A DNA stretch of 10,983 nt. Source: a virus (taxonomy: Duplodnaviria > Heunggongvirae > Uroviricota > Caudoviricetes). This document shows, piece by piece, positions 1-10,983 of this stretch. The number at the start of each line of letters is the position of its first letter. Within the stretch, counting starts at the first letter, position 1. Made by a program: the position numbers and the translations under genes. The stretch covers positions 1-10,983 of the IMG/VR virus record IMGVR_UViG_2585427760_000002, one strand, 5' to 3'. Below the pieces are notes generated by a model, which saw only the letters and a program-made list of their open reading frames with translations, was not told the DNA's origin and did no database searches.

Positions 1-474
<474 letters not shown>

Positions 475-478
475 TTAG
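475..478. repeat. Candidate 4-bp IS5 target-site duplication copy (TTAG)
   Basis: TTAG lies directly at the IS5 terminus and IS5 duplicates a 4-bp YTAR target. The second copy would be at the other IS5 end, outside the window, so the duplication itself is unverified. Confidence 0.5.
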
Positions 479-1790
479 TAATTTTGATAAGGCAAGAGCT
501 AAAGAAATATTACTAAGTGAGGTTGTTGTATTTGAAAATATTGACTCGGTAATAGAGGATTTTTCAATATTTATACAAGCAATTAATTCAAAGATAGATG
601 CTAATAATACACTCTTTAGAAATATAAAAACTGAGCAGAAAAATTTAAAAGAACATATATGGGCATATATTACCAAAGATGAGTTAAAAACGGATATAGA
701 AACTTACCTTAAAGCACGAAGCAAACTTGAGAAGAAAAGAGATGGTCTAAATGTAGGAGTAGCAAAAGAAAGCGAACAACTGATCGAGTTGAAGAAGGAG
801 ATGGAAGGAATTGAATCTAGCCAGACGAGTATTCTTCCAACTGTTCATGCAATTAATAATATTTTGAAGTGCTATGGGTTCACAAATTTCCATCTTAAAC
901 CATCTGAAGATAAAGCGCATTATGTAATAGTAAGAGACAGCGGAGATAACGCTAGATTAACATTGAGCGAAGGAGAGAAGACGTTCATCACTTTTCTTTA
1001 CTATTATAGTCTTGTGAGAGGTAGCAATCAATCTTCTGGTGTTCTGGAAGATCGGGTCGTTGTTTTTGATGATCCAATATCAAGTTTAGATAGCGATATA
1101 TTGTTTATTGTCAGTTCACTAATTAAAAATTTAATGGATGATGTCCGTGAAAACAAAGGCAGCATAAAACAAATAATTATACTTACGCATAACATCTATT
1201 TTCACAAAGAGTTAACATTCAATCCAAAAAGATCAGGTAATAATGCAATGAATGAAGAAACCTTTTGGATTGTTAGAAAGAAAGATAAGAATTCTTATGT
1301 TGAAAAGTGCACTACCAACCCAATAAAAACATCATACGATCTCTTATGGAGCGAATTACGTCGTAGTGATAAAAATAATGGAACAATTCAAAACACTATG
1401 CGCAGAATTTTAGAGAACTACTTTAAAATTTTAGGTGGTGTTGATGTCAGAGAGTTAGAGTGTAATTTTGAAGGTTATGATAAATTAATTTTTAACTCAT
1501 TGGTGTCATGGATTAATGATGGCTCGCATTTTTCTGGAGATGATGTGTACATGAATTTAGATGATGTTTCTGTTGAGAAGAATCTAATTGTGTTTCAGAA
1601 AATATTTGAGTGTAGCCAACATGCAGCGCATTATAAAATGATGATGGGCGATTCGTATAAGCCCCTGGAAATAACGGTTCAACCTGTCGATGTTGTTGAA
1701 TTGGAGTCTGGTGCTAATGATGATGATATGAAAGTTGATGGTGCTGATGAGAAATCATCTTTGTTGTTAAGTGATGATGCGCCATTTTAA
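475..1790 (+). pseudogene. 3' portion (about 438 codons) of an IS5-interrupted ABC/SMC-like (AAA_13-type) ATPase gene; AT-rich cargo; possible PrrC/RloC-like C-terminal effector region
   Basis: The frame is open from the IS5 junction to the TAA at 1788-1790. The protein has a charged coiled-coil-like stretch (KTDIETYLKARSKLEKKRDGLNVGVAKESEQLIELKKEMEGIESS), an ABC signature-like LSEGEKTFITFLYYYSL, a Walker B/D-loop RVVVFDDPISSLDSD and an H-loop-like IIILTHN. No Walker A (GxxxxGK[ST]) is present and no ATG/GTG/TTG start follows the junction in frame, so the N-terminus must be on the far side of IS5. About 200 C-terminal residues are unassigned. The track ORF 405-1790 begins inside IS5 and is a read-through artefact. 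The segment is much more AT-rich than the phage genes. Confidence 0.6.
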
Positions 1791-1809
1791 TAAGTTAAAT
1801 TCTAAATAC

Positions 1810-1835
1810 GCCTGTAATAGATTTTAATTACAGGC
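1810..1835. terminator. Candidate bidirectional intrinsic terminator between the convergent cargo gene and Q
   Basis: Perfect inverted repeat GCCTGTAAT (1810-1818) / ATTACAGGC (1827-1835) around an 8-nt loop, in a 53-bp AT-rich gap between two convergent stop codons (1790 and 1844), with T/A-rich flanks on both strands. The stem is only moderately GC-rich. Confidence 0.4.
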
Positions 1836-1843
1836 CTATTTAA

Positions 1844-2872
1844 CTAATTTAAATCGTAATTTTTGAAATTTATAATATTTACACCTGCCCAATCGTTCAA
1901 TTCTTCCAACCTTTTTTGCAATGGTAAAAGTTCATTTCGAACGAAAACATTCGCTGCCTTTTCCACATCCCCAAATCCCCCAACATTGCTAGGCATTATC
2001 CCCATCATCTGCGGCGGCACCCGGTGCGCTGCCATCATGTCGTCCCGGCTCACGTTCTTGATGTTCAAAAACTCATCCTTTGCCGCCACTTCTGATAGTG
2101 GGATGATCTGGATGCCGTCCTTTTTACCGTTGGGGGAGTACATAAACAGGTTGCGGAAGTTGCCCGGCCCTTTGGCGCTTTTCATGGCTTGGCGGATGTT
2201 GTTCACGTCCTCTTGGTTCTGCGCCGCGTCGGTCATGTACATGATGAACCCTGCATGGCTGCCGTTGATGTAGTACTTGCGACGAAACAGAGTGGCGGAT
2301 TCGTTCAGCAGGGCAGAAGGAATAGCTGACAGATATTCTGGCAGGCCGTAAATCTCTTGGTTCAGGTCAGGTTCCATCAGATGAAAAATGCTACCTTTAG
2401 TGAACTCATACGGCTGCGTGGTCAACCCGTACTGTACAAACCAGTAAGTATCTAGATCCACTCCGCGGCGGGTGTATTTCGCCAGTGACGGCTCAAGCGA
2501 CAGAATGCCGCCGAGCCGGTTGGTGCGCTTCTCCAGATAGGCGTTACCAAATACCAGATAGTCCTGTACAAATCGGCTGAATGCCTGCTGGCTCAGAAGC
2601 GGGTGGGGAATAAAGGTGCTGGTCAGAATATTACGCTTCACCGCAATTGGGGAGCTGTGGTGCACCGCCGCGCGGTAGGTGCGCGCCAGCCCGTCAAAAC
2701 TCACCGGTGGCTCATACCACCTGTCCATCTGTACGCATTCCACATAGTCCAGTAATTCGCGGCGGTCCAGAACTGGGATCGGATCACCGAAGCTGAATGC
2801 TTCTGCCGCTGCGCCGCGGCTGGTATTTGTGTTGTGATTAGCCGCGGTGCGGCGGTTCTTACGTTTGCCCAT
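1844..2872 (-). CDS. Q: Phage portal protein (P2 gpQ-like), 342 aa
   Basis: The translation (MGKRKNRRTAANHNTNTSRGAAAEAFSFGDPIPVLDRRELLDYVECVQMDRWYEPP...) is recognisable as the P2-family portal. Length is close to P2 gpQ, and its ATG overlaps the P stop (ATGA at 2870-2874), as in P2. Confidence 0.9.
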   Translation of the reverse strand: MGKRKNRRTAANHNTNTSRGAAAEAFSFGDPIPVLDRRELLDYVECVQMDRWYEPPVSFDGLARTYRAAVHHSSPIAVKRNILTSTFIPHPLLSQQAFSRFVQDYLVFGNAYLEKRTNRLGGILSLEPSLAKYTRRGVDLDTYWFVQYGLTTQPYEFTKGSIFHLMEPDLNQEIYGLPEYLSAIPSALLNESATLFRRKYYINGSHAGFIMYMTDAAQNQEDVNNIRQAMKSAKGPGNFRNLFMYSPNGKKDGIQIIPLSEVAAKDEFLNIKNVSRDDMMAAHRVPPQMMGIMPSNVGGFGDVEKAANVFVRNELLPLQKRLEELNDWAGVNIINFKNYDLN

Positions 2873-4635
2873 CAGAAAATCTCCACAATGTTGTTGGTAT
2901 TGGCGGCCTCGCCCTGCAGCGGTTCGTTAAACAGCGCGTGCATCGTTGCCCAGGCCAAATCTGCATGGCTGGCTTCTTCACTTCGGCTGGCTTCATATGT
3001 TGGGCGGTTGCCGCTGGCGGTGGTGGCCCGGCGGATTGCCATAAAGGATTGCGCGATGTCGGTGTGCCCTGCGTCGAACTCCAGGCGGCGGTGGCTGATA
3101 ATGTCGTATGCCTTGAGAACCAGGGCGTTTTTGACGTTCGGGTTATAAACGAACTCGCGGACGGCGGGGAAAAAGGCTTTAACGTTCTCATAGACGCCGT
3201 GGCCTACGCCGGTTGAGTCGATGCCGATATAGGTCACGTTATATTGCTGCGTGAGGGCTTTGATAGCGTCAGCCTGGGCGCGAAAGTCCATTCCGCGCCA
3301 CTGGTGACGCTCCAGAATACGGAACTTGCCGCCCGATACTGATGGCGGGGCAATGACGACGCAACCGGCGCTGTCACCGTTCTGCGTACCTTTCGCCGGG
3401 TCATAACCGATCCAGACTTCACGCCAGCCAAACGGACGCAGCGCCAGCGCCTGAAAATCAGTCCAGACTTCCCAACTGTCCACCATGCAGGCCTGCAGCT
3501 CGCTGAGCGGGAACACTGACGCCAGATCGTCAATAAATTCACACATCAGCAGGTTCTGGTATTCGTCAGGGCTGTATTCCATGCGCAGCTGGTCGAGGTC
3601 GAACAGGTTACAGCCACCGCGCACGGCATCCTCAACGGTGACGATCTGGCGGTATTGTCCATCTGGGCAAAGCACGCCGCGCGCCAGATTGGCGTGGGTC
3701 AGGTCAATATCTACCTTGTCAGCTTTTGCGCGGCCCCGATTGAACAGGGCGCCCGACCAGAACGGATAGGCGCTGTGGGTCAGGCTGGACGGCGTGGAAA
3801 AATAGGTTTGCCGCCATTTTTTGTGAATCGCCATCCCAGATGCCACTTTGCGTAGCTCCTGGAATTTCGGTATCCAGAAATATTCATCAAGGTAAAGGTT
3901 GCCATGGTAGCTCTGCGCGGTGCGGGCGTTTGTGCCGAGGAAATACAGCGTGGCGCCATTGCTGAGCGTCATCGGGTCGCCTTTCAGCTCCACATCAACC
4001 TCTTTGGCAAAGTCGATGATGTATTGCTTAAAGACGTGTGCCTGCGCCTTGCTGGCGGAGAGGAAGATTTGATTGCGCCCTGTGGTGATAGCGTCGATCA
4101 GTGCCTCGCGGGCGAAGAAATACGTTGCGCCTATCTGACGGGATTTAAGCAGGTTGCGGATGCGGTGCTTAACGCCTGCCTGCCACCAATGGCGCTGATA
4201 TTCGAACATACCGCCACGGAATATTTCTTCCAGCTTTTCGATCTGCTCATCGGTGAAAATGTTCTTTTCAGGCTGGCGGCGCGGGCCTTTGTTGCGGTTG
4301 GCAACTTTCGGATTCAAATCTGCCTCGTTCCCGCCATCGTTGAATTTCCCGATCCGGGCGTGACGTTCTGACTGACGTGCCAGCAGGTCAATTTCCTTAA
4401 AGTCTTTCCCTTCTTTCTGCTCCTTCATGATGAGCTGGCAATAGCGGGCTGCAGTGGTGAGCTGCATCTGATCGAGTGGGCCATACTCGCCCCACTTATC
4501 ACGCTTTTTCCAGCTGTGAACGGTTGCAACTTTTTCGCCCAGCATTTCAGCAATGCGGGCTACGCGGTATCCCTGAAAATACAGCAGCATTGCCTGCCTG
4601 CGGGGATCGAGGTCTGAGGGGGTCATGGTTTCCAT
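2872..4635 (-). CDS. P: Terminase large (ATPase) subunit (P2 gpP-like), 587 aa
   Basis: The translation (METMTPSDLDPRRQAMLLYFQGYRVARIAEMLGEKVATVHSWKKRDKWGEYGP...) is recognisable as the P2-family large terminase. It is divergent from O and in a Q-P operon on the minus strand. An alternative start at the fourth codon (Met) is possible. Confidence 0.9.
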   Translation of the reverse strand: METMTPSDLDPRRQAMLLYFQGYRVARIAEMLGEKVATVHSWKKRDKWGEYGPLDQMQLTTAARYCQLIMKEQKEGKDFKEIDLLARQSERHARIGKFNDGGNEADLNPKVANRNKGPRRQPEKNIFTDEQIEKLEEIFRGGMFEYQRHWWQAGVKHRIRNLLKSRQIGATYFFAREALIDAITTGRNQIFLSASKAQAHVFKQYIIDFAKEVDVELKGDPMTLSNGATLYFLGTNARTAQSYHGNLYLDEYFWIPKFQELRKVASGMAIHKKWRQTYFSTPSSLTHSAYPFWSGALFNRGRAKADKVDIDLTHANLARGVLCPDGQYRQIVTVEDAVRGGCNLFDLDQLRMEYSPDEYQNLLMCEFIDDLASVFPLSELQACMVDSWEVWTDFQALALRPFGWREVWIGYDPAKGTQNGDSAGCVVIAPPSVSGGKFRILERHQWRGMDFRAQADAIKALTQQYNVTYIGIDSTGVGHGVYENVKAFFPAVREFVYNPNVKNALVLKAYDIISHRRLEFDAGHTDIAQSFMAIRRATTASGNRPTYEASRSEEASHADLAWATMHALFNEPLQGEAANTNNIVEIF

Positions 4636-4681
4636 GGCTCAAACATACGGCCTTGATTGCAGCCTTTCCCTGACTGCGTTT

Positions 4682-4699
4682 TGTGTGGTTTATCGCACA
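4682..4699. promoter_or_regulatory. TGT-N12-ACA dyad in the P/O divergent intergenic region: candidate Ogr/Delta-type late-activator site
   Basis: TGTgtggtttatcgcACA at 4682-4699. P2-family late promoters are known to carry a TGT-N12-ACA element centred near -55. The centre here (about 4690) is roughly 85 bp upstream of the O start at 4776, compatible with a rightward late promoter with a short leader. A GGAG Shine-Dalgarno sits at 4764-4767. No second clean site was found for the leftward P promoter. Confidence 0.45.
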
Positions 4700-4775
4700 A
4701 GGTGCGCGCGTTGTTTCACCCCCTCCATCACAGCAAACATAAGGCTCCAGTAAGTTTTCTAACGGAGCACAGCTC

Positions 4776-5609
4776 ATGACAGTGAAAGCAAAGCGTTTCC
4801 GTATTGGGGTGGAAGGTGTCACCACTGACGGACGCGAAATCCAGCGTGACTGGCTGATTCAGATGGCTGCCAGCTATAACCCGTCGGTCTATACCGCGCT
4901 GATCAACCTAGAACACATTAAGTCCTACATGCCGGACAGCACTTTTAACCGTTACGGCAAGGTAGCGGCGCTGGTTGCAGAGGAAATCAGTGATGGCCCG
5001 CTGGCGGGCAAGATGGCGCTTTATGCCGATGTGGAGCCAACGGATTCACTGGTGGAGCTGGTAAAAAAAGGCCAGAAGCTGTTCACCTCCATGGAGGTCA
5101 GCCCGAAATTTGCTGATACCGGTAAAGCCTATCTGGTAGGGCTGGCGGCCACTGACGATCCAGCAAGTCTGGGTACCGAAATGCTGGCTTTCAGTGCCAG
5201 CGCTGCGCACAACCCGCTGGCGAACCGTAAGCAGAACCCTGAAAACCTGTTTACCGCCGCTGCAGAAACGGTGATCGAACTGGAAGAAACCCAAGACGAA
5301 AAACCGAGCCTTTTTTTCCGCGTGGCTGCGATGTTCAGCAAAAAAGAACAAAGCGACGATGCGCGATTCTCTGATGTGCATAAAGCCGTGGAACTGCTGG
5401 CAACTGAGCAGCAGAACCTGGGCGACAGCACGCAAAAATCCTTATCTGAGCAGGCCGCCCGTCTGTCTGAGCTGGAAACCTTGCTGCAGGCGCAGGTCGA
5501 TGCCTTTTCCGAACTGCAGCAGAAGCTGAGCCAGGAAGATAGCCGCAAAGATTATCGCCAGCGCACGCCGGGCGGCTCTGCGCCTGCTGGCTCTCTGACC
5601 AATTGCTGA
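4776..5609 (+). CDS. O: Capsid scaffolding protein (P2 gpO-like), 277 aa
   Basis: The translation (MTVKAKRFRIGVEGVTTDGREIQRDWLIQMAASYNPSVYTALINLEHIKSYMPDS...) is recognisable as the P2-family scaffold. It has an SD plus ATG start and the conserved O-N-M-L gene order. Confidence 0.88.
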   Translation: MTVKAKRFRIGVEGVTTDGREIQRDWLIQMAASYNPSVYTALINLEHIKSYMPDSTFNRYGKVAALVAEEISDGPLAGKMALYADVEPTDSLVELVKKGQKLFTSMEVSPKFADTGKAYLVGLAATDDPASLGTEMLAFSASAAHNPLANRKQNPENLFTAAAETVIELEETQDEKPSLFFRVAAMFSKKEQSDDARFSDVHKAVELLATEQQNLGDSTQKSLSEQAARLSELETLLQAQVDAFSELQQKLSQEDSRKDYRQRTPGGSAPAGSLTNC

Positions 5610-5625
5610 TGGAGCATAAAACCCG

Positions 5626-6702
5626 ATGAAACAGAAAACTAAATTTGCATTCAATGCCTACCTGCAGCAGCTGGCACGCCTGAACGGTGTGGAGGTTGAG
5701 GAGCTTTCCAGCAAGTTCACCGTTGAGCCGTCCGTACAGCAGACGTTGGAGGATGAGATCCAGCAGTCTGCTGCATTCCTGACGTTGATTAACGTCTCGC
5801 CGGTTGATGAGCAGTCCGGACAACTGCTGGGGTTGGGCGTAGGTAGCACCGTTGCCGGAACCACCGACACCACCAAACAGGACCGTGAGCCTACCGATCC
5901 GATGGTGATGGAGGACGTGGAGTATAAATGCGAGCAGACCAACTATGACACGGTGCTGACCTACGCGAAGCTGGACCTGTGGGCGAAATTCCAGGACTTC
6001 CAGGTGCGCGTGCGTAACGCCATCATCAAGCGTCAGGCGCTGGACCGCATCATGATTGGCTTTAACGGCGTGAGCCGCGCCAAAACCTCTGACCGTTCTG
6101 CTAACCCTCTGCTGCAGGATGTGAACAAAGGCTGGCTGCAGAAAATCCGCGAAGATGCGCCGGATCACGTTATGGGCAGTACCACCAAAGACGGCGTAAC
6201 CACTAAAGGCGCGGTGAAAGTGGGTAAAGGCGCGTCGGGGCTGGATGACAAAGGCTACGAAAATCTGGACGCCGTGGTGATGGATGCCGTCAACGAGCTG
6301 ATCGATGTGGTGTACCAGGACGATGACGAATTGGTGGTGATCTGTGGTCGTGAGCTGCTGTCCGACAAGTATTTCCCTCTCGTCAACAAAGACCAGGAGA
6401 ACAGTGAAAAGCTGGCTGCCGATCTCATTATCAGCCAGAAACGCATGGGTGGCCTGCAGGCGGTCCGCGCGCCGTTCTTCCCGGCAAATGCCCTGCTGAT
6501 TACACGTCTGGATAACCTGTCCATTTACTGGCAGGCAGATACCCGCCGCCGTTCTGTCATTGATAACCCGAAACGCGATCGCATTGAAAACTTTGAATCG
6601 GTCAATGAGGCGTTTGTGGTGGAGGACTACCGCTGCGCGGCCCTGGTTGAAAACATCGAGTACGGTGATTTCAGTACTCCAGCACCAGATTCCGGGGAGT
6701 AA
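5626..6702 (+). CDS. N: Major capsid protein (P2 gpN-like), 358 aa
   Basis: The translation (MKQKTKFAFNAYLQQLARLNGVEVEELSSKFTVEPSVQQTLEDEIQQSAAFLTLINV...) is recognisable as the P2-family major capsid protein. Length is close to P2 gpN (about 357 aa). Confidence 0.92.
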   Translation: MKQKTKFAFNAYLQQLARLNGVEVEELSSKFTVEPSVQQTLEDEIQQSAAFLTLINVSPVDEQSGQLLGLGVGSTVAGTTDTTKQDREPTDPMVMEDVEYKCEQTNYDTVLTYAKLDLWAKFQDFQVRVRNAIIKRQALDRIMIGFNGVSRAKTSDRSANPLLQDVNKGWLQKIREDAPDHVMGSTTKDGVTTKGAVKVGKGASGLDDKGYENLDAVVMDAVNELIDVVYQDDDELVVICGRELLSDKYFPLVNKDQENSEKLAADLIISQKRMGGLQAVRAPFFPANALLITRLDNLSIYWQADTRRRSVIDNPKRDRIENFESVNEAFVVEDYRCAALVENIEYGDFSTPAPDSGE

Positions 6703-6705
6703 TGC

Positions 6706-7356
6706 ATGAGCCTGAGTCCCGCAAGGCAGCATCGCCTGCGCGTTCAGGCTGAACAGGCCGCTCGGCAGGGCGGCAGTGTTCGCCACGCGTCAGGTTATGA
6801 CCTGATGCTGCTGCAGCTGGCGGAGGACCGCCGCCGCCTTAAAAGCATTCAGTCCACGGTAACAAAGGCGCAAATCAAAGTTGAGCTGCTGCCTAAGTAT
6901 GCCGCCTGGGCGGAGGGGGTGCTGGCTGCCGGCGGTACGCAGCAGGACGATGTGCTGATGTTCGTGATGCTCTGGCGTATTGATGCCGGTGATTATGCCG
7001 GAGCGCTGGAAATCGGGCGTCATGCACTGCGTCAGGGCTGGGTGATGCCAATTGGCAATCGGAACGTGCAGACGGTGCTGGCGGAAGAAATTGCAGACGC
7101 GGCGCAAAGCGCCCTGATTGCCGCAACGGGCTTTGACGTTGAGCCGCTTCTGCAGACGCTGGACCTTACCGCCGATCACGATATGCCGGATCAGTCACGG
7201 GCGCGACTGCATAAAGCAATCGGCCTTGTGCTGGCTGAATCCAGCCCCGCATCAGCGCTTAACCACCTCAACCATGCGCTGCAGCTCGATAACCACTGTG
7301 GCGTGAAGAAAGATAAACAGCAACTGGAGCGCCGTTTGCGCGTCGCCGGTAGCTGA
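6706..7356 (+). CDS. M: Terminase small/endonuclease subunit (P2 gpM-like), 216 aa
   Basis: The translation (MSLSPARQHRLRVQAEQAARQGGSVRHASGYDLMLLQLAEDRRRLKSIQ...) resembles P2 gpM. It starts 4 nt after the N stop. It is shorter than P2 gpM (about 247 aa), which has a longer basic C-terminal tail. Confidence 0.85.
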   Translation: MSLSPARQHRLRVQAEQAARQGGSVRHASGYDLMLLQLAEDRRRLKSIQSTVTKAQIKVELLPKYAAWAEGVLAAGGTQQDDVLMFVMLWRIDAGDYAGALEIGRHALRQGWVMPIGNRNVQTVLAEEIADAAQSALIAATGFDVEPLLQTLDLTADHDMPDQSRARLHKAIGLVLAESSPASALNHLNHALQLDNHCGVKKDKQQLERRLRVAGS

Positions 7357-7449
7357 CCGAACGTGCCCCGCGCACGGGCGGCACGGGGTGGCGAAAGGCA
7401 ACGCCACATCAAAACCCCGTCCACCGCCCTCTAATCTGGAGAAAGCCGC

Positions 7450-7914
7450 ATGAAGTTTGTTGCGCCCGAACAGGCACCGGAACAGGCCGAAGTCATCAAA
7501 AATACGCCGTTCTGGCCTGATGTTGATTTGTCGGAATTTCGCAGCGTGATGCGAACGGACGGCACGGTGACGGCACCACGTTTAAAGCAGTTGATCCTTT
7601 CCGCTATGTCAGAGGTTAACGCAGAGCTTTACACCTTCCGCCAGCGCCAGCAGATGCTGGGGTTTATGACGCTGGCAGATGTGCCTGCGGAGCAGCTGGA
7701 CGGTAAAAGCGAGCGCATCCACCACTATCACAATGCTGTTTTTTGCTGGGCGCGTGCGCAGGTCAATGAGCGTTATCAGGACTATGACGCCACGGCGTCC
7801 GGCGTGAAGCGGGGAGAGGAACTGGCGGAGGCCAGCGGCGACCTGTGGCGGGATGCCCGCTGGGCTATCAGCCGGGTACAGGATGCGCCGCACTGCACGG
7901 TGGAGCTGATCTGA
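7450..7914 (+). CDS. L: Head completion/stabilisation protein (P2 gpL-like), 154 aa
   Basis: The translation (MKFVAPEQAPEQAEVIKNTPFWPDVDLSEFRSVMRTDGTVTAPRLKQLILSAM...) is recognisable as P2-family gpL. A GGAG sits about 8 nt upstream of the ATG. Confidence 0.87.
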   Translation: MKFVAPEQAPEQAEVIKNTPFWPDVDLSEFRSVMRTDGTVTAPRLKQLILSAMSEVNAELYTFRQRQQMLGFMTLADVPAEQLDGKSERIHHYHNAVFCWARAQVNERYQDYDATASGVKRGEELAEASGDLWRDARWAISRVQDAPHCTVELI

Positions 7915-8117
7915 TGAAAGTGCGTGCGTACCAGAATGACACGGTGGACGCGCTTTGCTGGCGTCATTACGGACGCACGCAGGGCGTCACGGAACAGGTA
8001 CTGCAGGCAAATCCGGGGCTGGCTGAATATGGCCCATTTTTACCACACGGCCTGCAGGTGGAGCTGCCGGATATTGCCACCACGACCACGGTGCAGACCG
8101 TCCAGCTATGGGACTGA
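7914..8117 (+). CDS. X: Tail protein X (P2 gpX-like), 67 aa
   Basis: The ATG at 7914 overlaps the L stop (TGATG). The translation MKVRAYQNDTVDALCWRHYGRTQGVTEQVLQANPGLAEYGPFLPHGLQVELPDI... matches P2 gpX in character and in length (67 aa). The track's longer ORF from 7845 uses an upstream alternative start inside L and is not preferred. Confidence 0.85.
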   Translation: MKVRAYQNDTVDALCWRHYGRTQGVTEQVLQANPGLAEYGPFLPHGLQVELPDIATTTTVQTVQLWD

Positions 8118-8120
8118 ACT

Positions 8121-8336
8121 ATGACGCTTGAACGAATCAGCGCCTTTGTTACGTACTGCATCGCCTTATTCATGGCGAAGCTTGGGAACTTTGATCTGCA
8201 GGCGGCAGCGACCATCACCGGAATGGTGCTGGGTTTGTGCATGTTTCTGGTCAGCTGGTACTACCGGCACAAGACCTATCAGCTGCTTGCCAGCGGAAAA
8301 ATCAGCCGGGGTGAATGTGAGTCTGCGGGCCGTTAA
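8121..8336 (+). CDS. Holin, small two-TMD type (pinholin-like), 71 aa
   Basis: It occupies the holin position immediately after X and before the endolysin. It has two hydrophobic segments (ISAFVTYCIALFMAKL and ITGMVLGLCMFLVSWYY) and a charged C-terminus. It is shorter than P2 gpY (about 93 aa). Confidence 0.7.
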   Translation: MTLERISAFVTYCIALFMAKLGNFDLQAAATITGMVLGLCMFLVSWYYRHKTYQLLASGKISRGECESAGR

Positions 8337-8826
8337 AAACTGCGTTATCGGTGTGGTGCTGGCGATTGCCGCCACGCTGCCGGGTTTTCAGCAACTCCAC
8401 ACATCGGTGGAAGGATTAAAGCTGATTGCGGATTACGAGGGATGCCGCCTGCAGCCTTATCAGTGTGATGCGGGTGTGTGGACTGACGGCATCGGCAACA
8501 CGTCAGGCGTGAAGCCGGGCCGGACCATTACAGAACGGCAGGTGGCGGGGAACTTCATCACCAACGTGCTGAGGGTTGAAACCGCGCTGGCGCGCTGTGT
8601 CCTGGTGGATGTTCCGCAGTTTGTCTATGACGCGCTGGTGTCTCTGGCCTTTAACGTTGGGGCCGGCAATGCCTGCAGTTCCACCATGGTGAAGTTTATT
8701 AATCAGAAGCGCTGGCGGGATGCGTGCTATCAGCTGCCGCGCTGGGTGTATGTCAACGGTGTATTTAATCAGGGGCTGGATAACCGCCGCGCGCGGGAGC
8801 TGTCCTGGTGCTTAAAGGGAGCGTAA
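8311..8826 (+). CDS. SAR (signal-anchor-release) endolysin, T4-lysozyme-like fold, about 170 aa; start at GTG 8311 or GTG 8317
   Basis: The track ORF 8128-8826 is over-extended upstream. Immediately after the in-frame GTG codons the protein has an N-terminal Gly/Ala-rich weakly hydrophobic segment (VKNCVIGVVLAIAATLPGF) followed by a catalytic-looking region (EGLKLIADYEGCRLQPYQCDAGVWTDGIGNT). It overlaps the holin 3' end, as is typical of lysis cassettes. Confidence 0.8.
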   Translation: MNVSLRAVKNCVIGVVLAIAATLPGFQQLHTSVEGLKLIADYEGCRLQPYQCDAGVWTDGIGNTSGVKPGRTITERQVAGNFITNVLRVETALARCVLVDVPQFVYDALVSLAFNVGAGNACSSTMVKFINQKRWRDACYQLPRWVYVNGVFNQGLDNRRARELSWCLKGA

Positions 8827-8856
8827 CGGAATGAAAAATAAAGTGGCGGTGGCCTG

Positions 8857-9282
8857 ATGCGCATACTGGCGGCGGTGATAGCGCTGGTTCTTGCCTTGCT
8901 TGGCTGGCAATCGTGGCAGTTGAACAAGGCCCGGCAGACGATTGAGCTGCAGGGACGTGATCTTGAAGCCAGCAAGGAAAAACAGGCCCGCGCCAGCAGT
9001 CAGCTGATCGCGCTGTCTGTTCTGACCGAAACCAACAACCGGGAGCAGGCGCGGCTTTATGCGGCGGCGGAAGAATCCACCGCGCTACTGCGCCAGCGGC
9101 AACGGCGTATTGAGGAGCTTAAACGTGAAAACGATGATTTGCGGCGCTGGTCTGATACTCCTTTGCCTCCTGACGTTATCAGGTTGCGGGACCGCCCCGC
9201 GCTCGCCGGAGGTGCAGCTTACCGTGAATGGCTGTCCGAAAATAACACAGTGCCGCCTGCAAAAGTCGTCAGCCAGGACTAA
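8857..9282 (+). CDS. lysB: i-spanin (Rz-like; P2 LysB-like), 141 aa
   Basis: N-terminal TM helix (ILAAVIALVLALLGW) followed by a charged coiled-coil periplasmic domain. Length is the same as P2 LysB as I recall it. No lysA-like gene lies between the endolysin and lysB; the gap is only 30 bp. Confidence 0.85.
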   Translation: MRILAAVIALVLALLGWQSWQLNKARQTIELQGRDLEASKEKQARASSQLIALSVLTETNNREQARLYAAAEESTALLRQRQRRIEELKRENDDLRRWSDTPLPPDVIRLRDRPALAGGAAYREWLSENNTVPPAKVVSQD

Positions 9283-9415
9283 CGGCGATCTGCTTACGGC
9301 GGCTGATGAAGCCGAGGCTGCATGGGCCATCTGCGCCGATAAGGTGGATGTGATTATTGCCTGCCAGGAGCGAAACAGTGAACAAGCCTCAATCCTTACG
9401 CCACGCGCTCAATAA
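9125..9415 (+). CDS. lysC: o-spanin lipoprotein (Rz1-like; P2 LysC-like), 96 aa from GTG 9125 (or 93 aa from ATG 9134)
   Basis: It starts in an alternative frame inside lysB and extends past its stop (overlapped spanin architecture). It has a signal peptide with a lipobox (ICGAGLILLCLLTLSGC). A GAGGAG Shine-Dalgarno at 9111-9116 sits 8 nt before GTG 9125. Confidence 0.8.
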   Translation: MKTMICGAGLILLCLLTLSGCGTAPRSPEVQLTVNGCPKITQCRLQKSSARTNGDLLTAADEAEAAWAICADKVDVIIACQERNSEQASILTPRAQ

Positions 9416-9812
9416 GGCGGTGCAGTACGTCCGGGAGAACCCGGACAAGCTGCATATGTTCGTGGACAAAGGCGCAGTAGTGGCGACCGGCGCGCCGTCT
9501 ATTTCATGGGAATACCGGTACACCCTGAACGTGGTGGTAGTCGATTTTAGTGGTGACCAGAATTTACTGATGGCGCCGATCCTCCAGTGGCTGAGTGTTA
9601 ACCAGCCTGACGCCATCAACAACCCGGAGCTGAGGGAAAAACTTTTTAGTTTTGAAGTGGATATCCTGCGCAATGATATTTGCGATATCAGCATAGACCT
9701 GCAGCTGACGGAGCGTGTTGTGGTCAGCACTGATGGCGGTGTGTCGAGCGTGGAAGCCGTGCCGGAGCCGGAAAACCCTGATGATGCTATGTGGACGGTG
9801 AAACGTGGATGA
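9378..9812 (+). CDS. R: Tail completion protein R (P2 gpR-like), about 144 aa from GTG 9378
   Basis: The translation (...SLRHALNKAVQYVRENPDKLHMFVDKGAVVATGAPSISWEYRYTLNVVVVDFSGDQNLLMAPILQWL...) is recognisable as P2-family gpR. AGGAG at 9365-9369 sits 8 nt before GTG 9378; the track's start at 9357 is a TTG inside lysC and is less likely. Confidence 0.85.
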   Translation: MNKPQSLRHALNKAVQYVRENPDKLHMFVDKGAVVATGAPSISWEYRYTLNVVVVDFSGDQNLLMAPILQWLSVNQPDAINNPELREKLFSFEVDILRNDICDISIDLQLTERVVVSTDGGVSSVEAVPEPENPDDAMWTVKRG

Positions 9813-10251
9813 GCTGCAGCAGGTTGATGCGTGGCTGACGGCGCTGCTGGCGAGCCTTGCCCCGGCAGAACGGAAGCGAATGCTGCGCGAGCTGGCGCAG
9901 CAGCTGCGCCGGACGCAACAACAAAACATCAGGCTGCAGCGCAACCCGGACGGTAGCGGATACGAGCCGCGCCGCGTCACGGGACGCACGAAGCAGGGGC
10001 GCATCAAGCGGCAGATGTTTTCTAAGCTGCGTACCGCAAGATACCTGAAAGCCACCGCCAGCGCAGACTCTGCCAGTGTGCAGTTTGAGGGGAGGGTGCA
10101 GCGCATTGCTCGTGTACATCATTACGGCCTGCGTGATCGAGTCAGTCGTAAGGGGCCGGAGATCCGATACACTAAACGTCAATTACTCGGATTCAGTGAT
10201 AATTCTCGCTTATTGATTCGCGATGTGCTGTTACGTTTTATAAATTATTGA
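9805..10251 (+). CDS. S: Tail completion protein S (P2 gpS-like), 148 aa, GTG start
   Basis: The translation (DELQQVDAWLTALLASLAPAERKRMLRELAQQLRRTQQQNIRLQRNPDGSGYEPRRV...) is recognisable as P2-family gpS. The GTG start overlaps the R stop. Confidence 0.87.
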   Translation: MDELQQVDAWLTALLASLAPAERKRMLRELAQQLRRTQQQNIRLQRNPDGSGYEPRRVTGRTKQGRIKRQMFSKLRTARYLKATASADSASVQFEGRVQRIARVHHYGLRDRVSRKGPEIRYTKRQLLGFSDNSRLLIRDVLLRFINY

Positions 10252-10270
10252 ATGTGATAATCCAATTTAG

Positions 10271-10720
10271 TCATTTATTATTTTTAAGTTTTTTGGATAA
10301 GAAGAATAATCCAGCGATACACATTATTAACAATGCTACGGAGATTGAATGATGTATTGTCCATTTGTCTGGATCTATAACTGAAAGCATAAGGAGTATT
10401 ACGGAAGCTATGCCCAGCATTATAGGCTCGACTGCTTCGTCAGGACCTTTTGTTATCAGCATAAATGCAAGTTGGAACCCACATGATACAGCCAGTGCTT
10501 TGGCAACATAACTTAGGGTTTTTATTTGTCGTATATGAGCAAAGAACGGTTGTGATGATATATCAATTGGCCAGAATGTATCTACTAATTCAACTGTGCC
10601 TTTGAATAAAAGGAACCCTGTTAAACCGACAAATATAAGTCGTTGGCAAAAAAACTGAATTCTATCTGCAGATTTTTCAGTTTCGGATTTATTTTCATCT
10701 TCAATGTCTTCGATGTCATC
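10271..10720 (-). pseudogene. 3' portion (about 149 codons) of an AT-rich cargo gene encoding a multi-TM membrane domain, apparently interrupted by IS1
   Basis: My own minus-strand translation shows the frame stays open from the IS1 junction (10720) to the stop at 10273-10271, about 149 codons with no stop in roughly 30% GC DNA. It reads DDIEDIEDENKSETEKSADR (acidic linker), then about four hydrophobic helices (IQFFCQRLIFVGLTGFLLF, LSYVAKALAVSCGFQLAFMLI, VEPIMLGIASVILLMLSVI, ISVALLIMCIAGLFFL), ending KKLKNNK. The first canonical start is the ATG at 10462 (the 63-aa ORF in the track); no ATG/GTG/TTG lies upstream of it in frame, so the frame most likely continues from beyond IS1. Confidence 0.5.
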
Positions 10721-10983
10721 GGTAATGACTCCAACTTATTGATAGTGTTTTATGTTCAGATAATGCCCGATGACTTTGTCATGCAGCTCCACCGATTTGA
10801 GAACGACAGCGACTTCCGTCCCAGCCGTGCCAGGTGCTGCCTCAGATTCAGGTTATGCCGCTCAATTCGCTGCGTATATCGCTTGCTGATTACGTGCAGC
10901 TTTCCCTTCAGGCGGGATTCATACAGCGGCCAGCCATCCGTCATCCATATCACCACGTCAAAGGGTGACAGCAGGCTCATAAG
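10721..10983 (-). mobile_element. IS1: IS1 insertion sequence, partial: 263 bp from one terminal inverted repeat; the rest lies right of the window
   Basis: GGTAATGACTCCAACTTATTGATAGTGTTTTATGTTCAGATAATGCCCGATGAC... at 10721 onward is the IS1 terminal inverted repeat in reverse orientation, followed by the insB 3' coding region. IS1 is 768 bp. The flanking 9 bp (10712-10720, GATGTCATC) would be the target duplication, but the other copy is outside the window. Confidence 0.92.
10736..10983 (-). CDS. insB: IS1 transposase InsB, C-terminal part (partial); the C-terminal approximately 19 residues differ from the canonical InsB I recall
   Basis: The minus-strand translation ...[61 protein letters not shown]... 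matches IS1 InsB. After LSFS the window reads [13 protein letters not shown] with a stop at 10756, whereas the InsB I recall ends [20 protein letters not shown] with a stop at 10736. This is consistent with a 1-nt shorter A-run (TTT at 10796-10798 on the plus strand). Confidence 0.85.

Follow-up and report, generated by a model that had tools for sequence, protein, structure and literature searches.

What did a prophage gene encode before an insertion sequence cut it in two, and can the part that is left still act? The question is raised by a stretch of 10,983 nucleotides (IMG/VR virus record IMGVR_UViG_2585427760_000002, Caudoviricetes, positions 1 to 10,983; "the window" below means this whole stretch), which opens inside a copy of the insertion sequence IS5 and runs, from position 475, into an ATPase gene that lies beside the portal gene Q of a P2-like prophage. 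Our analysis indicates that the frame at 477-1790 is very probably the 3' 56% of a single-gene anti-phage cargo, encoding an anticodon nuclease of the RloC family in a P2-like prophage and killed by IS5. The parts of the gene that the window retains are as follows.

477-1790, plus strand: 3' remnant of a 777-residue RloC-family gene, codons 341-777 and the stop codon (AAA_13, PDC-S06)
405-1790, plus strand: chimeric open reading frame (ORF) of 461 residues from the ORF list, in which an in-frame IS5 ATG adds 24 IS5-derived residues
540-821, plus strand: returning coiled-coil arm (remnant residues 22-115, AlphaFold model)
963-980, plus strand: ABC signature LSEGEK (remnant residue 163)
1056-1091, plus strand: Walker B and D-loop, VVVFDDPISSLD (remnant residue 194)
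1182-1193, plus strand: H-loop with the switch histidine, LTHN (remnant residue 236)
1401-1415, plus strand: RRILE, the predicted catalytic Arg-x3-Glu (remnant residue 309; R649/E653 of the intact protein)
1515-1529, plus strand: NDGSH, with the predicted catalytic His (GSH, 1521-1529, ends at residue 351; H691 of the intact protein)
1629-1649, plus strand: HYKMMMG, last motif of the conserved domain (invariant H385 and M388-390)
1650-1787, plus strand: acidic tail of 46 residues, predicted disordered, with the tip SDDAPF at 1770-1787

The frame that starts at 477 and ends with the stop codon at 1788-1790 encodes 437 residues. It holds a coiled coil, LSEGEK, VVVFDDPISSLD and LTHN, in that order, and no Walker A was found in the frame 477-1790, all as described by an earlier reading made from the letters alone (the sequence-only reading below). 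That reading had also taken the gene for an AAA_13-type ATPase split by IS5, and on this point the Pfam and PADLOC profile searches and an IS-free allele agree. The remnant matches Pfam AAA_13 with an E-value of 1.6e-99 (profile positions 343-713 of 713) and the PADLOC model PDC-S06 with an E-value of 1.1e-157 (positions 337-727 of 732), while the match to the PrrC model is weaker (E 8e-13). Since the match starts about 340 positions into the family models, about 340 N-terminal residues must be missing. The AAA_13 and PDC-S06 models reach remnant residues 378 and 395 of 437, respectively, so that the C-terminal 200 residues, which the sequence-only reading had left unassigned, are largely covered, and only the last 42-46 or so residues, i.e. 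the acidic tail, lie outside the family models.

The missing part is present in an IS-free allele that a scan of IMG/VR found in locus L007 (UViG_3300029846_000109), which is 100% identical to the window over 475-7787. Here the gene is a single intact ORF (4981-7314) of 777 amino acids, and it supplies the 5' 340 codons ahead of the IS5 point for which the sequence-only reading had looked to an IS-free homologue. The L007 protein has a Walker A, GANGAGKT, at residues 31-38 and a CPFC at 264-267, followed by the signature at 503, Walker B at 534, the H-loop at 576-579 and the predicted triad R649, E653 and H691, with S690 before the His; the 5' part that is missing from the window thus holds the CPFC zinc hook and the outgoing arm of the coiled coil as well as Walker A. 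The intact protein spans nearly the whole of both family models (AAA_13 2-713 of 713, E 7.7e-165, 550.9 bits against a cut-off of 36; PDC-S06 1-727 of 732, E 8.7e-265), and its residues 465-703 match the PADLOC hidden Markov model (HMM) of PrrC with an E-value of 4.6e-13. The gene order in L007 is A (682-3099), other ORFs, a cos-like sequence (GGCGTGGCGGGGATACGAG at 4836-4854, upstream of the gene), the RloC-like gene and Q. The idea that the gene was one component of a multi-gene system continuing to the left did not survive this comparison: the RloC-like gene is a single ORF that stands alone between the cos-like DNA and Q, and therefore there is no operon continuing leftward. On the gpA side of cos, at 3912-4718, L007 also contains an ORF of 268 residues with hydrophobic N-terminal segments, which has a weak 40% match to an ORF at the same place in another locus (L005) and may be another cargo gene; no Pfam or PADLOC family was found for it above threshold (DUF6338 only at E 0.008).

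In the AlphaFold model of the remnant (predicted local distance difference test, pLDDT, 79.7) one sees a near-continuous helix at residues 22-115 (helices 22-48, 50-69 and 71-115, with pLDDT mostly 71-92), an ABC lobe, a helical C-domain and a disordered tail. The solved structures nearest to this model are Rad50 and SMC heads and the retron protein PtuA, and in its ATPase part the model resembles a head of the Rad50/SMC type that carries a coiled coil.

Conservation was followed in two alignments of homologues, A1 with 93 sequences and A2 with 63. The ATPase motifs are invariant in A2: L163, S164, E165, G166 and E167 of the signature, D198, D199, P200, S203, L204 and D205 of Walker B and the D-loop, and T237, H238 and N239 of the H-loop. 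In the C-terminal domain, R309, R310 and E313 are invariant in A1 and A2, as are S350-H351 (with G349 invariant in A2, and N347 and D348 nearly so) and H385 with M388-390; the HYKMMMG motif is found in 229 of 269 sampled homologues. Homologues are 734-763 residues long, with a Walker A near residue 31 and a CPFC near residue 265 or so (nearly all of 120), and the Joint Genome Institute name of many close ones is "wobble nucleotide-excising tRNase".

RloC proteins were defined as distant homologues of PrrC with ABC ATPase motifs, a coiled-coil/CXXC zinc-hook insert and a length of 658-897 residues (Davidov & Kaufmann 2008, PMC2610378), and their C-proximal motif is Arg-X3-Glu-X36-52-His, often with a Ser preceding the His (PMC2610378). 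The protein studied here shows the signature, Walker B/D-loop and H-loop in the window and the Walker A in L007 only; the CPFC hook is in L007 and the returning arm of the coiled coil is modelled in the remnant; its 777 residues fall within 658-897, and the remnant reads R309-x3-E313-x37-S350-H351. The intact protein is also a full-length member of PDC-S06 and AAA_13. It aligns over 749 residues, with 37% identity, an E-value of 1e-148 and all motifs in register, with a 759-residue Helicobacter pylori ORF located next to fmt, which by its length and its fmt neighbour agrees with RloC orthologues 47/48 of the founding paper (Table S1, PMC2610378). The triad holds without exception in more than 90 sequences, whose identity goes as low as 37-45%. 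Judged by these features of its sequence, the intact protein is a member of the RloC-type family of tRNA anticodon nucleases and not of the PrrC type. The R-x3-E...H pattern that the sequence-only reading had picked out is real, in that R309, E313 and S350-H351 are invariant in the 93 and 63 aligned homologues and fit the RloC motif. Of the PrrC/RloC-like effector that it had suggested, the RloC-type nuclease domain stands, while the PrrC type falls with the 777-residue length, the coiled coil, the hook and the lack of a restriction-modification linkage.

GkaRloC, the RloC of Geobacillus kaustophilus and one of the closest known systems, has its hook around C291, compared with CPFC 264-267 here, and its triad R692/E696/H737 corresponds to R649/E653/H691 by motif spacing, with no direct alignment. 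The gene differs from GkaRloC in being prophage cargo between cos and Q and in its long acidic tail with an SSB-like tip, and the window copy differs further in being truncated by IS5, without the N-terminal 340 residues. [quoted passage not shown] The N352-x3-H356 pair is essential in EcoPrrC (PMC3025547), and an Asn four residues ahead of the His, N347, is present here and nearly invariant, giving Asn-x3-His as in PrrC. PrrC differs, however, in having 396 residues, no coiled coil or zinc hook, LARP and PrrC-box motifs, and a location within a type Ic restriction-modification locus that silences it. The lack of a restriction-modification linkage is a further likeness to RloC: the gene is flanked by cos-like DNA and Q in L007, and by annotated P2 prophage genes and the portal gene Q, with no hsd genes, in the Escherichia coli locus L095. 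PrrC proper was ruled out by the size, the coiled coil, the CPFC hook and the absence of hsd neighbours.

A protein of the OLD, Gabija GajA or PARIS AriA-AriB type was also rejected, with no TOPRIM match in Pfam or PADLOC; the match of the intact protein to the OLD-related AriA has an E-value of only 1.7e-7 and falls in the P-loop region. P2 Old itself, an ABC ATPase with a TOPRIM domain, is the classical cargo of the same slot next to cos and likewise combines an ATPase sensor with a nuclease effector, whereas the protein studied here has no TOPRIM and instead has a PrrC/RloC-type effector, a Rad50-like coiled coil and a zinc hook. A 2026 preprint (10.64898/2026.07.10.737580) reports that Old surveys the replication of phages and acts as an abortive tRNase. 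As for PDC-S06 and AAA_13 (PF13166), these are computational families without a described mechanism, and the 46-residue tail lies outside both.

How the gene was interrupted can be read at the left edge of the window, where two features meet.

1-474, minus strand: end of IS5, with the inverted-repeat terminus and the first 135 or so codons of the transposase gene ins5A
475-478, no strand assigned: TTAG, target site of IS5 and one of the two copies expected from a 4-bp duplication

Thousands of E. coli copies of IS5 match positions 1-474 with 98-99% identity, the start codon of ins5A is at 406-404 on the minus strand, and the terminus, read in the sequence (...GGGACTTGTTCGCACCTTCC / ...CGCACCTTCC), has its last base at 474. 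IS5 is 1195 bp long, and the remaining 720 bp or so fall beyond the window. Its target preference is YTAR, which TTAG fits. The IS-free allele L007 has one TTAG only, at 5999-6002, spanning codons I340/S341, where the window match begins, and its identity to the window starts exactly at base 475. GC content is 51-56% in IS5, 30-38% over 475-1950 and 52-64% in the phage core genes; the end of IS5 at 474 and the AT-rich onset at 475, both noted in the sequence-only reading, are thus borne out by the terminus and by the measured drop. This is a bona fide insertion of IS5 at TTAG within codons 340/341 of the RloC-family gene. By comparison of the flanking DNA it is also a very recent one, because 7.3 kb of flank carry no substitution relative to the IS-free allele.

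A second insertion sequence is seen at the opposite edge. Positions 10721-10983, the right end of the window, are an end of IS1 with 94-96% identity to E. coli IS1A/B and the terminus GGTAATGACTCC at 10721; it sits in a second AT-rich stretch (10252-10720, GC 35-42%) just past the tail gene S (9805-10251). Both the IS5 and the IS1 copy lie within AT-rich cargo, not in core phage genes.

To the right, the gene is followed by a hairpin and by the portal gene.

1844-2872, minus strand: portal gene Q (Pfam Phage_portal, E 1.5e-16), right border of the cargo slot
1803-1842, no strand assigned: hairpin with 16-bp arms, between the convergent stops of the RloC-like gene (1790) and Q (1844)

The prophage is enterobacterial and P2-like (Felsduovirus-like). 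At the DNA level Q shares 83% identity with Salmonella phage SEN8 and Klebsiella P2-like phages, and what remains of the window is made up of a P2-like module for head, lysis and tail, with 82-83% identity to the same phages. In SEN8 the same slot holds different genes, homologues adjoin the portal gene in L005, L008-L010 and L095, and upstream of the homologue L001 and L005 have a cos-like sequence, as L007 does upstream of the gene; the P2 cos 19-mer was not found in the window. The gpA-gpQ cos-adjacent hotspot of P2 is described by Rousset et al. 2022 (PMC9122126), with 1,650 arrangements of its genes in E. coli, and the supplementary tables of that study (Table S5, PMC9122126) contain AAA_13 single-gene systems at the hotspot, one of them annotated "RloC-like". 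The tables also list WP_106509408, the E. coli homologue of locus L095, and, to judge by the text of PMC9122126, AAA_13 systems are not among the ones validated. A phage neighbourhood of RloC was already apparent in the table of Davidov & Kaufmann 2008, where RloC of E. coli APEC O1 is flanked by "phage replication initiation, capsid" (PMC2610378), and prophage-borne ABC-HEPN proteins were noted by Anantharaman et al. 2013. The RloC-like gene occupies this known P2 gpA-gpQ cargo hotspot, so that the sequence-only reading was right to see a variable cargo slot beside Q, given the match of Q, the comparison with SEN8 and the gene order of L007 and L095. With the AAA_13 "RloC-like" systems of the hotspot the gene shares the slot and the single-gene layout, and the L095 protein is 68% identical to the remnant; in contrast to them, the window allele is divergent and interrupted by IS5. 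The L095 allele (NZ_CP159639.1, 437228-439564) is annotated merely as "AAA family ATPase" and occurs in no more than 26 of the 5,426 complete E. coli genomes.

No DNA match to 478-1900 was found in complete E. coli genomes (megablast; 5,426) or in phage records (blastn), scanning the species genomes of GTDB for exact 30-mers gave 0 matches, and the nearest species-representative genome has only 52% protein identity. A sequence search of the PDB found no relative, and NCBIfam gave no specific family, only noise.

The hairpin at 1803-1842 has arms that are 94% complementary and an 8-nt loop; its RNA fold has an energy of -16.2 kcal/mol (z = -6.1), and 0 of 200 shuffles fold as well. A simple terminator scan did not call it, as a T run is absent. 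It is probably a two-way terminator, as far as one can predict. Just beyond it, in the 3' end of Q (1844-1950), the last 60-110 or so nucleotides are AT-rich and their DNA is unmatched in SEN8 and the Klebsiella phages, although at the protein level the alignment extends to the last residues. It seems that the cargo module has its recombination boundary within the 3' end of Q.

What the intact protein would do can be proposed by analogy with its characterized relatives. GkaRloC cuts the wobble nucleotide out of tRNA, and mutating any residue of its triad abolishes activity (PMC2610378). Its nuclease is silenced by intramolecular zinc-hook joints and activated by DNA, especially linear DNA, together with ATP hydrolysis (Klaiman et al. 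2012, PMC3458546), and mutations in the zinc hook make it hyperactive and ATPase-independent (PMC2610378, PMC3458546). In EcoPrrC the NTPase is needed in cis; neither by itself nor with the NTPase supplied in trans is the nuclease domain toxic (PMC3025547). The physiological trigger of RloC is described as unresolved, with DNA damage or DNA-end sensing through the Rad50-like head thought likely (PMC3458546). By extension from GkaRloC and EcoPrrC, the Rad50-like head and the hook-tipped coiled coil of the intact protein would keep the C-terminal nuclease silent; binding of DNA, perhaps of DNA ends, and ATP hydrolysis would release it, Arg649, Glu653 and His691 would cut tRNA anticodon loops, translation would stop and the infection would be aborted. 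The intact prophage protein is thus probably an anticodon nuclease, gated by DNA and ATP, that would halt translation once DNA is perturbed by a competing phage.

The remnant, by the same analogy, would be unable to form the head-to-tail ATP sandwich that its relatives need to switch on the nuclease. It is most likely a dead pseudogene, because it is without Walker A, the outgoing arm and the hook, because the PrrC nuclease domain alone is inert and because there are no convincing translation signals: no ribosome-binding site was seen by eye at the usual distance from the start of the chimeric ORF 405-1790, promoter-like sites near it are not above shuffled expectation, and no evidence of expression of this ORF was found. 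Two close relatives with tails ending in Pro-Phe are damaged as well. In L002/L011 (3067-5403) the gene is split into 278 and 474 residues, in a decayed prophage with portal remnants only, and in L005 (593-2923) the frame shifts at homopolymer runs, perhaps through errors of sequencing.

How firmly the anticodon nuclease can be maintained depends on the C-terminal domain, and here several points weigh against it. The correspondence with GkaRloC and EcoPrrC rests on the published motif and the PrrC HMM, not on direct alignment. His295, Arg349 and Asn352 of EcoPrrC are essential and said to be conserved in RloC (PMC3025547); equivalents of His295 and Arg349 are not evident among the 63 homologues of A2, a comparison with no PrrC or GkaRloC alignment behind it; A2 has a nearly invariant Ser at the seventh position ahead of the His, and no conserved His about 25 residues before the triad Arg. 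PrrC and RloC have been assigned to the HEPN superfamily (Anantharaman et al. 2013), which is marked by an Rx4-6H motif and a four-helix fold; here there is no Arg four to six residues before the His, i.e. no Rx4-6H motif, and a structural search with the C-domain had no match to HEPN or to any nuclease. The literature shows no biochemical or phage test of any member of this sub-family of about 745 residues, PADLOC has PDC-S06 as a candidate system only, and in publications mentioning PDC-S06 we found listings and no functional data. The window, moreover, ends within IS5, so the 5' half beyond IS5 is unseen in this genome. One may consider, then, a Rad50-like ABC ATPase whose C-terminal domain is something other than an anticodon nuclease, such as another RNase or an RNA- or DNA-binding module, for which the missing PrrC equivalents, the missing Rx4-6H motif and structural match, the modest PrrC HMM match and the lack of any tested branch member would all speak; if it were true, the RloC label from annotation would be wrong for this branch. 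We consider it unlikely, however: the Arg-x3-Glu-x37-Ser-His pattern is invariant in more than 90 sequences and the Asn four residues before its His nearly so, the branch includes the H. pylori ORFs that match RloCs of the founding paper, and in GkaRloC the mutation of any triad residue was enough to abolish nuclease activity.

The other two alternatives concern not the family of the gene but its present state. The remnant might be functional, if the chimeric ORF gave a nuclease that has escaped regulation, or a dominant-negative partner for another copy of RloC, and indeed there is the in-frame ATG at 405, there are no mutations relative to the intact allele, and loss of the hook need not be inactivating, because the hook mutants of GkaRloC are hyperactive and ATPase-independent. 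Undecayed sequence is, however, what one would expect after a recent insertion; without a Walker A there is no ATP site, the PrrC nuclease domain alone or in trans is non-toxic, neither a ribosome-binding site at normal distance nor a promoter-like site above shuffled background serves the chimeric ORF, and a constitutively active tRNA nuclease would be counter-selected, which makes a working remnant very unlikely. Alternatively, the junction between IS5 and the gene could be an assembly chimera, made by a contig ending in a collapsed IS5 repeat, and IS5 at the left and IS1 at the right window edge are indeed typical of short-read contigs broken at repeats. In contrast to a random mis-join, though, the junction falls exactly at the terminal base of IS5 and at TTAG, with the gene frame continuing, and such an artefact is hardly credible. 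Thus, it appears that we are dealing with an RloC-family gene that was truly interrupted by IS5, and the remnant is most likely dead.

One part of the protein goes beyond what is described for the family. The strongly acidic tail reported by the sequence-only reading is indeed there, with 13 Asp and Glu against 3 Lys and Arg over the last 46 residues, and the protein ends in SDDAPF; pLDDT is below 50 at residues 401-437 of the remnant model and the same holds in the model of the C-domain. In most members of the family the tail is about 14 residues long and has no PF tip. In the P2-prophage clade of the window the tips are NDDAPF, GDEAPF, NDDVPF, KNDIPF and AEVPF, and in a separate clade (about 45-55% identical by the identity matrix) they are DQVVPF, DPDIPF and DSDIPF. 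A search seeded with the Pseudomonas fluorescens sequence gave 120 cluster representatives, 57-93% identical, from Pseudomonas, Klebsiella, Enterobacter, Raoultella, Pantoea and Stutzerimonas; in this sister clade 108 of the 120 have the PF tip, with the consensus D-x-[DE]-[IVTML]-P-F, and one ends in DDDIPF. Outside the tip the tails are essentially unalignable (16-38% identity), and as a background none of 866 ORFs from the same loci ends in PF. The tail of L095, with 48 residues, also shows the SAND[DE] motif but ends in ...SNTYL without a PF tip. The H. pylori RloC-type ORFs next to fmt (L087-L094) have only 3-6 residues past the MMM motif; the PF-tipped acidic tail is therefore a lineage-specific addition and not a feature of the family.

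The C-terminal hexapeptide of E. coli SSB, DDDIPF, is a docking site for partner proteins (PMC5872125). The tail resembles the SSB C-terminus (SSB-Ct) in having a disordered linker followed by an acidic stretch and [IVA]-Pro-Phe-COOH, and differs from it in that outside the tail the protein has no relation to SSB and no OB fold, and in that the window tip has Ala where SSB has Ile. From the recurrence of these letters, we tentatively suggest that the disordered acidic tail with the tip [DE]-[AVI]-Pro-Phe could be a functional mimic of SSB-Ct that couples this branch of RloC to the SSB interaction network, although we regard this as somewhat less probable than a resemblance with no such role. 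Such a mimic could act by several routes: the nuclease might dock onto partners of SSB-Ct (for example ExoI, RecQ, PriA or the chi subunit of Pol III); the tail might bait phage proteins that target SSB; or, folded back onto the Rad50-like head, it might mimic DNA and serve as an autoinhibitor, to be displaced by DNA. Literature searches found no link between RloC and SSB-Ct.

As such, the gene of the window belongs to a family already known, lies in a hotspot already described and was most likely inactivated by an insertion sequence, and in this respect it is routine. Its zero-substitution flanks, however, make it a clean and dated example of a prophage that lost a defence gene very recently, and the IS-free allele supplies the exact sequence of a PDC-S06 branch. 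The one potentially new feature may be the SSB-tip-like C-terminus, which recurs in a large gamma-proteobacterial branch of the family; if it is truly a docking tip, it would provide a route from intermediates of replication and repair to the cleavage of tRNA.

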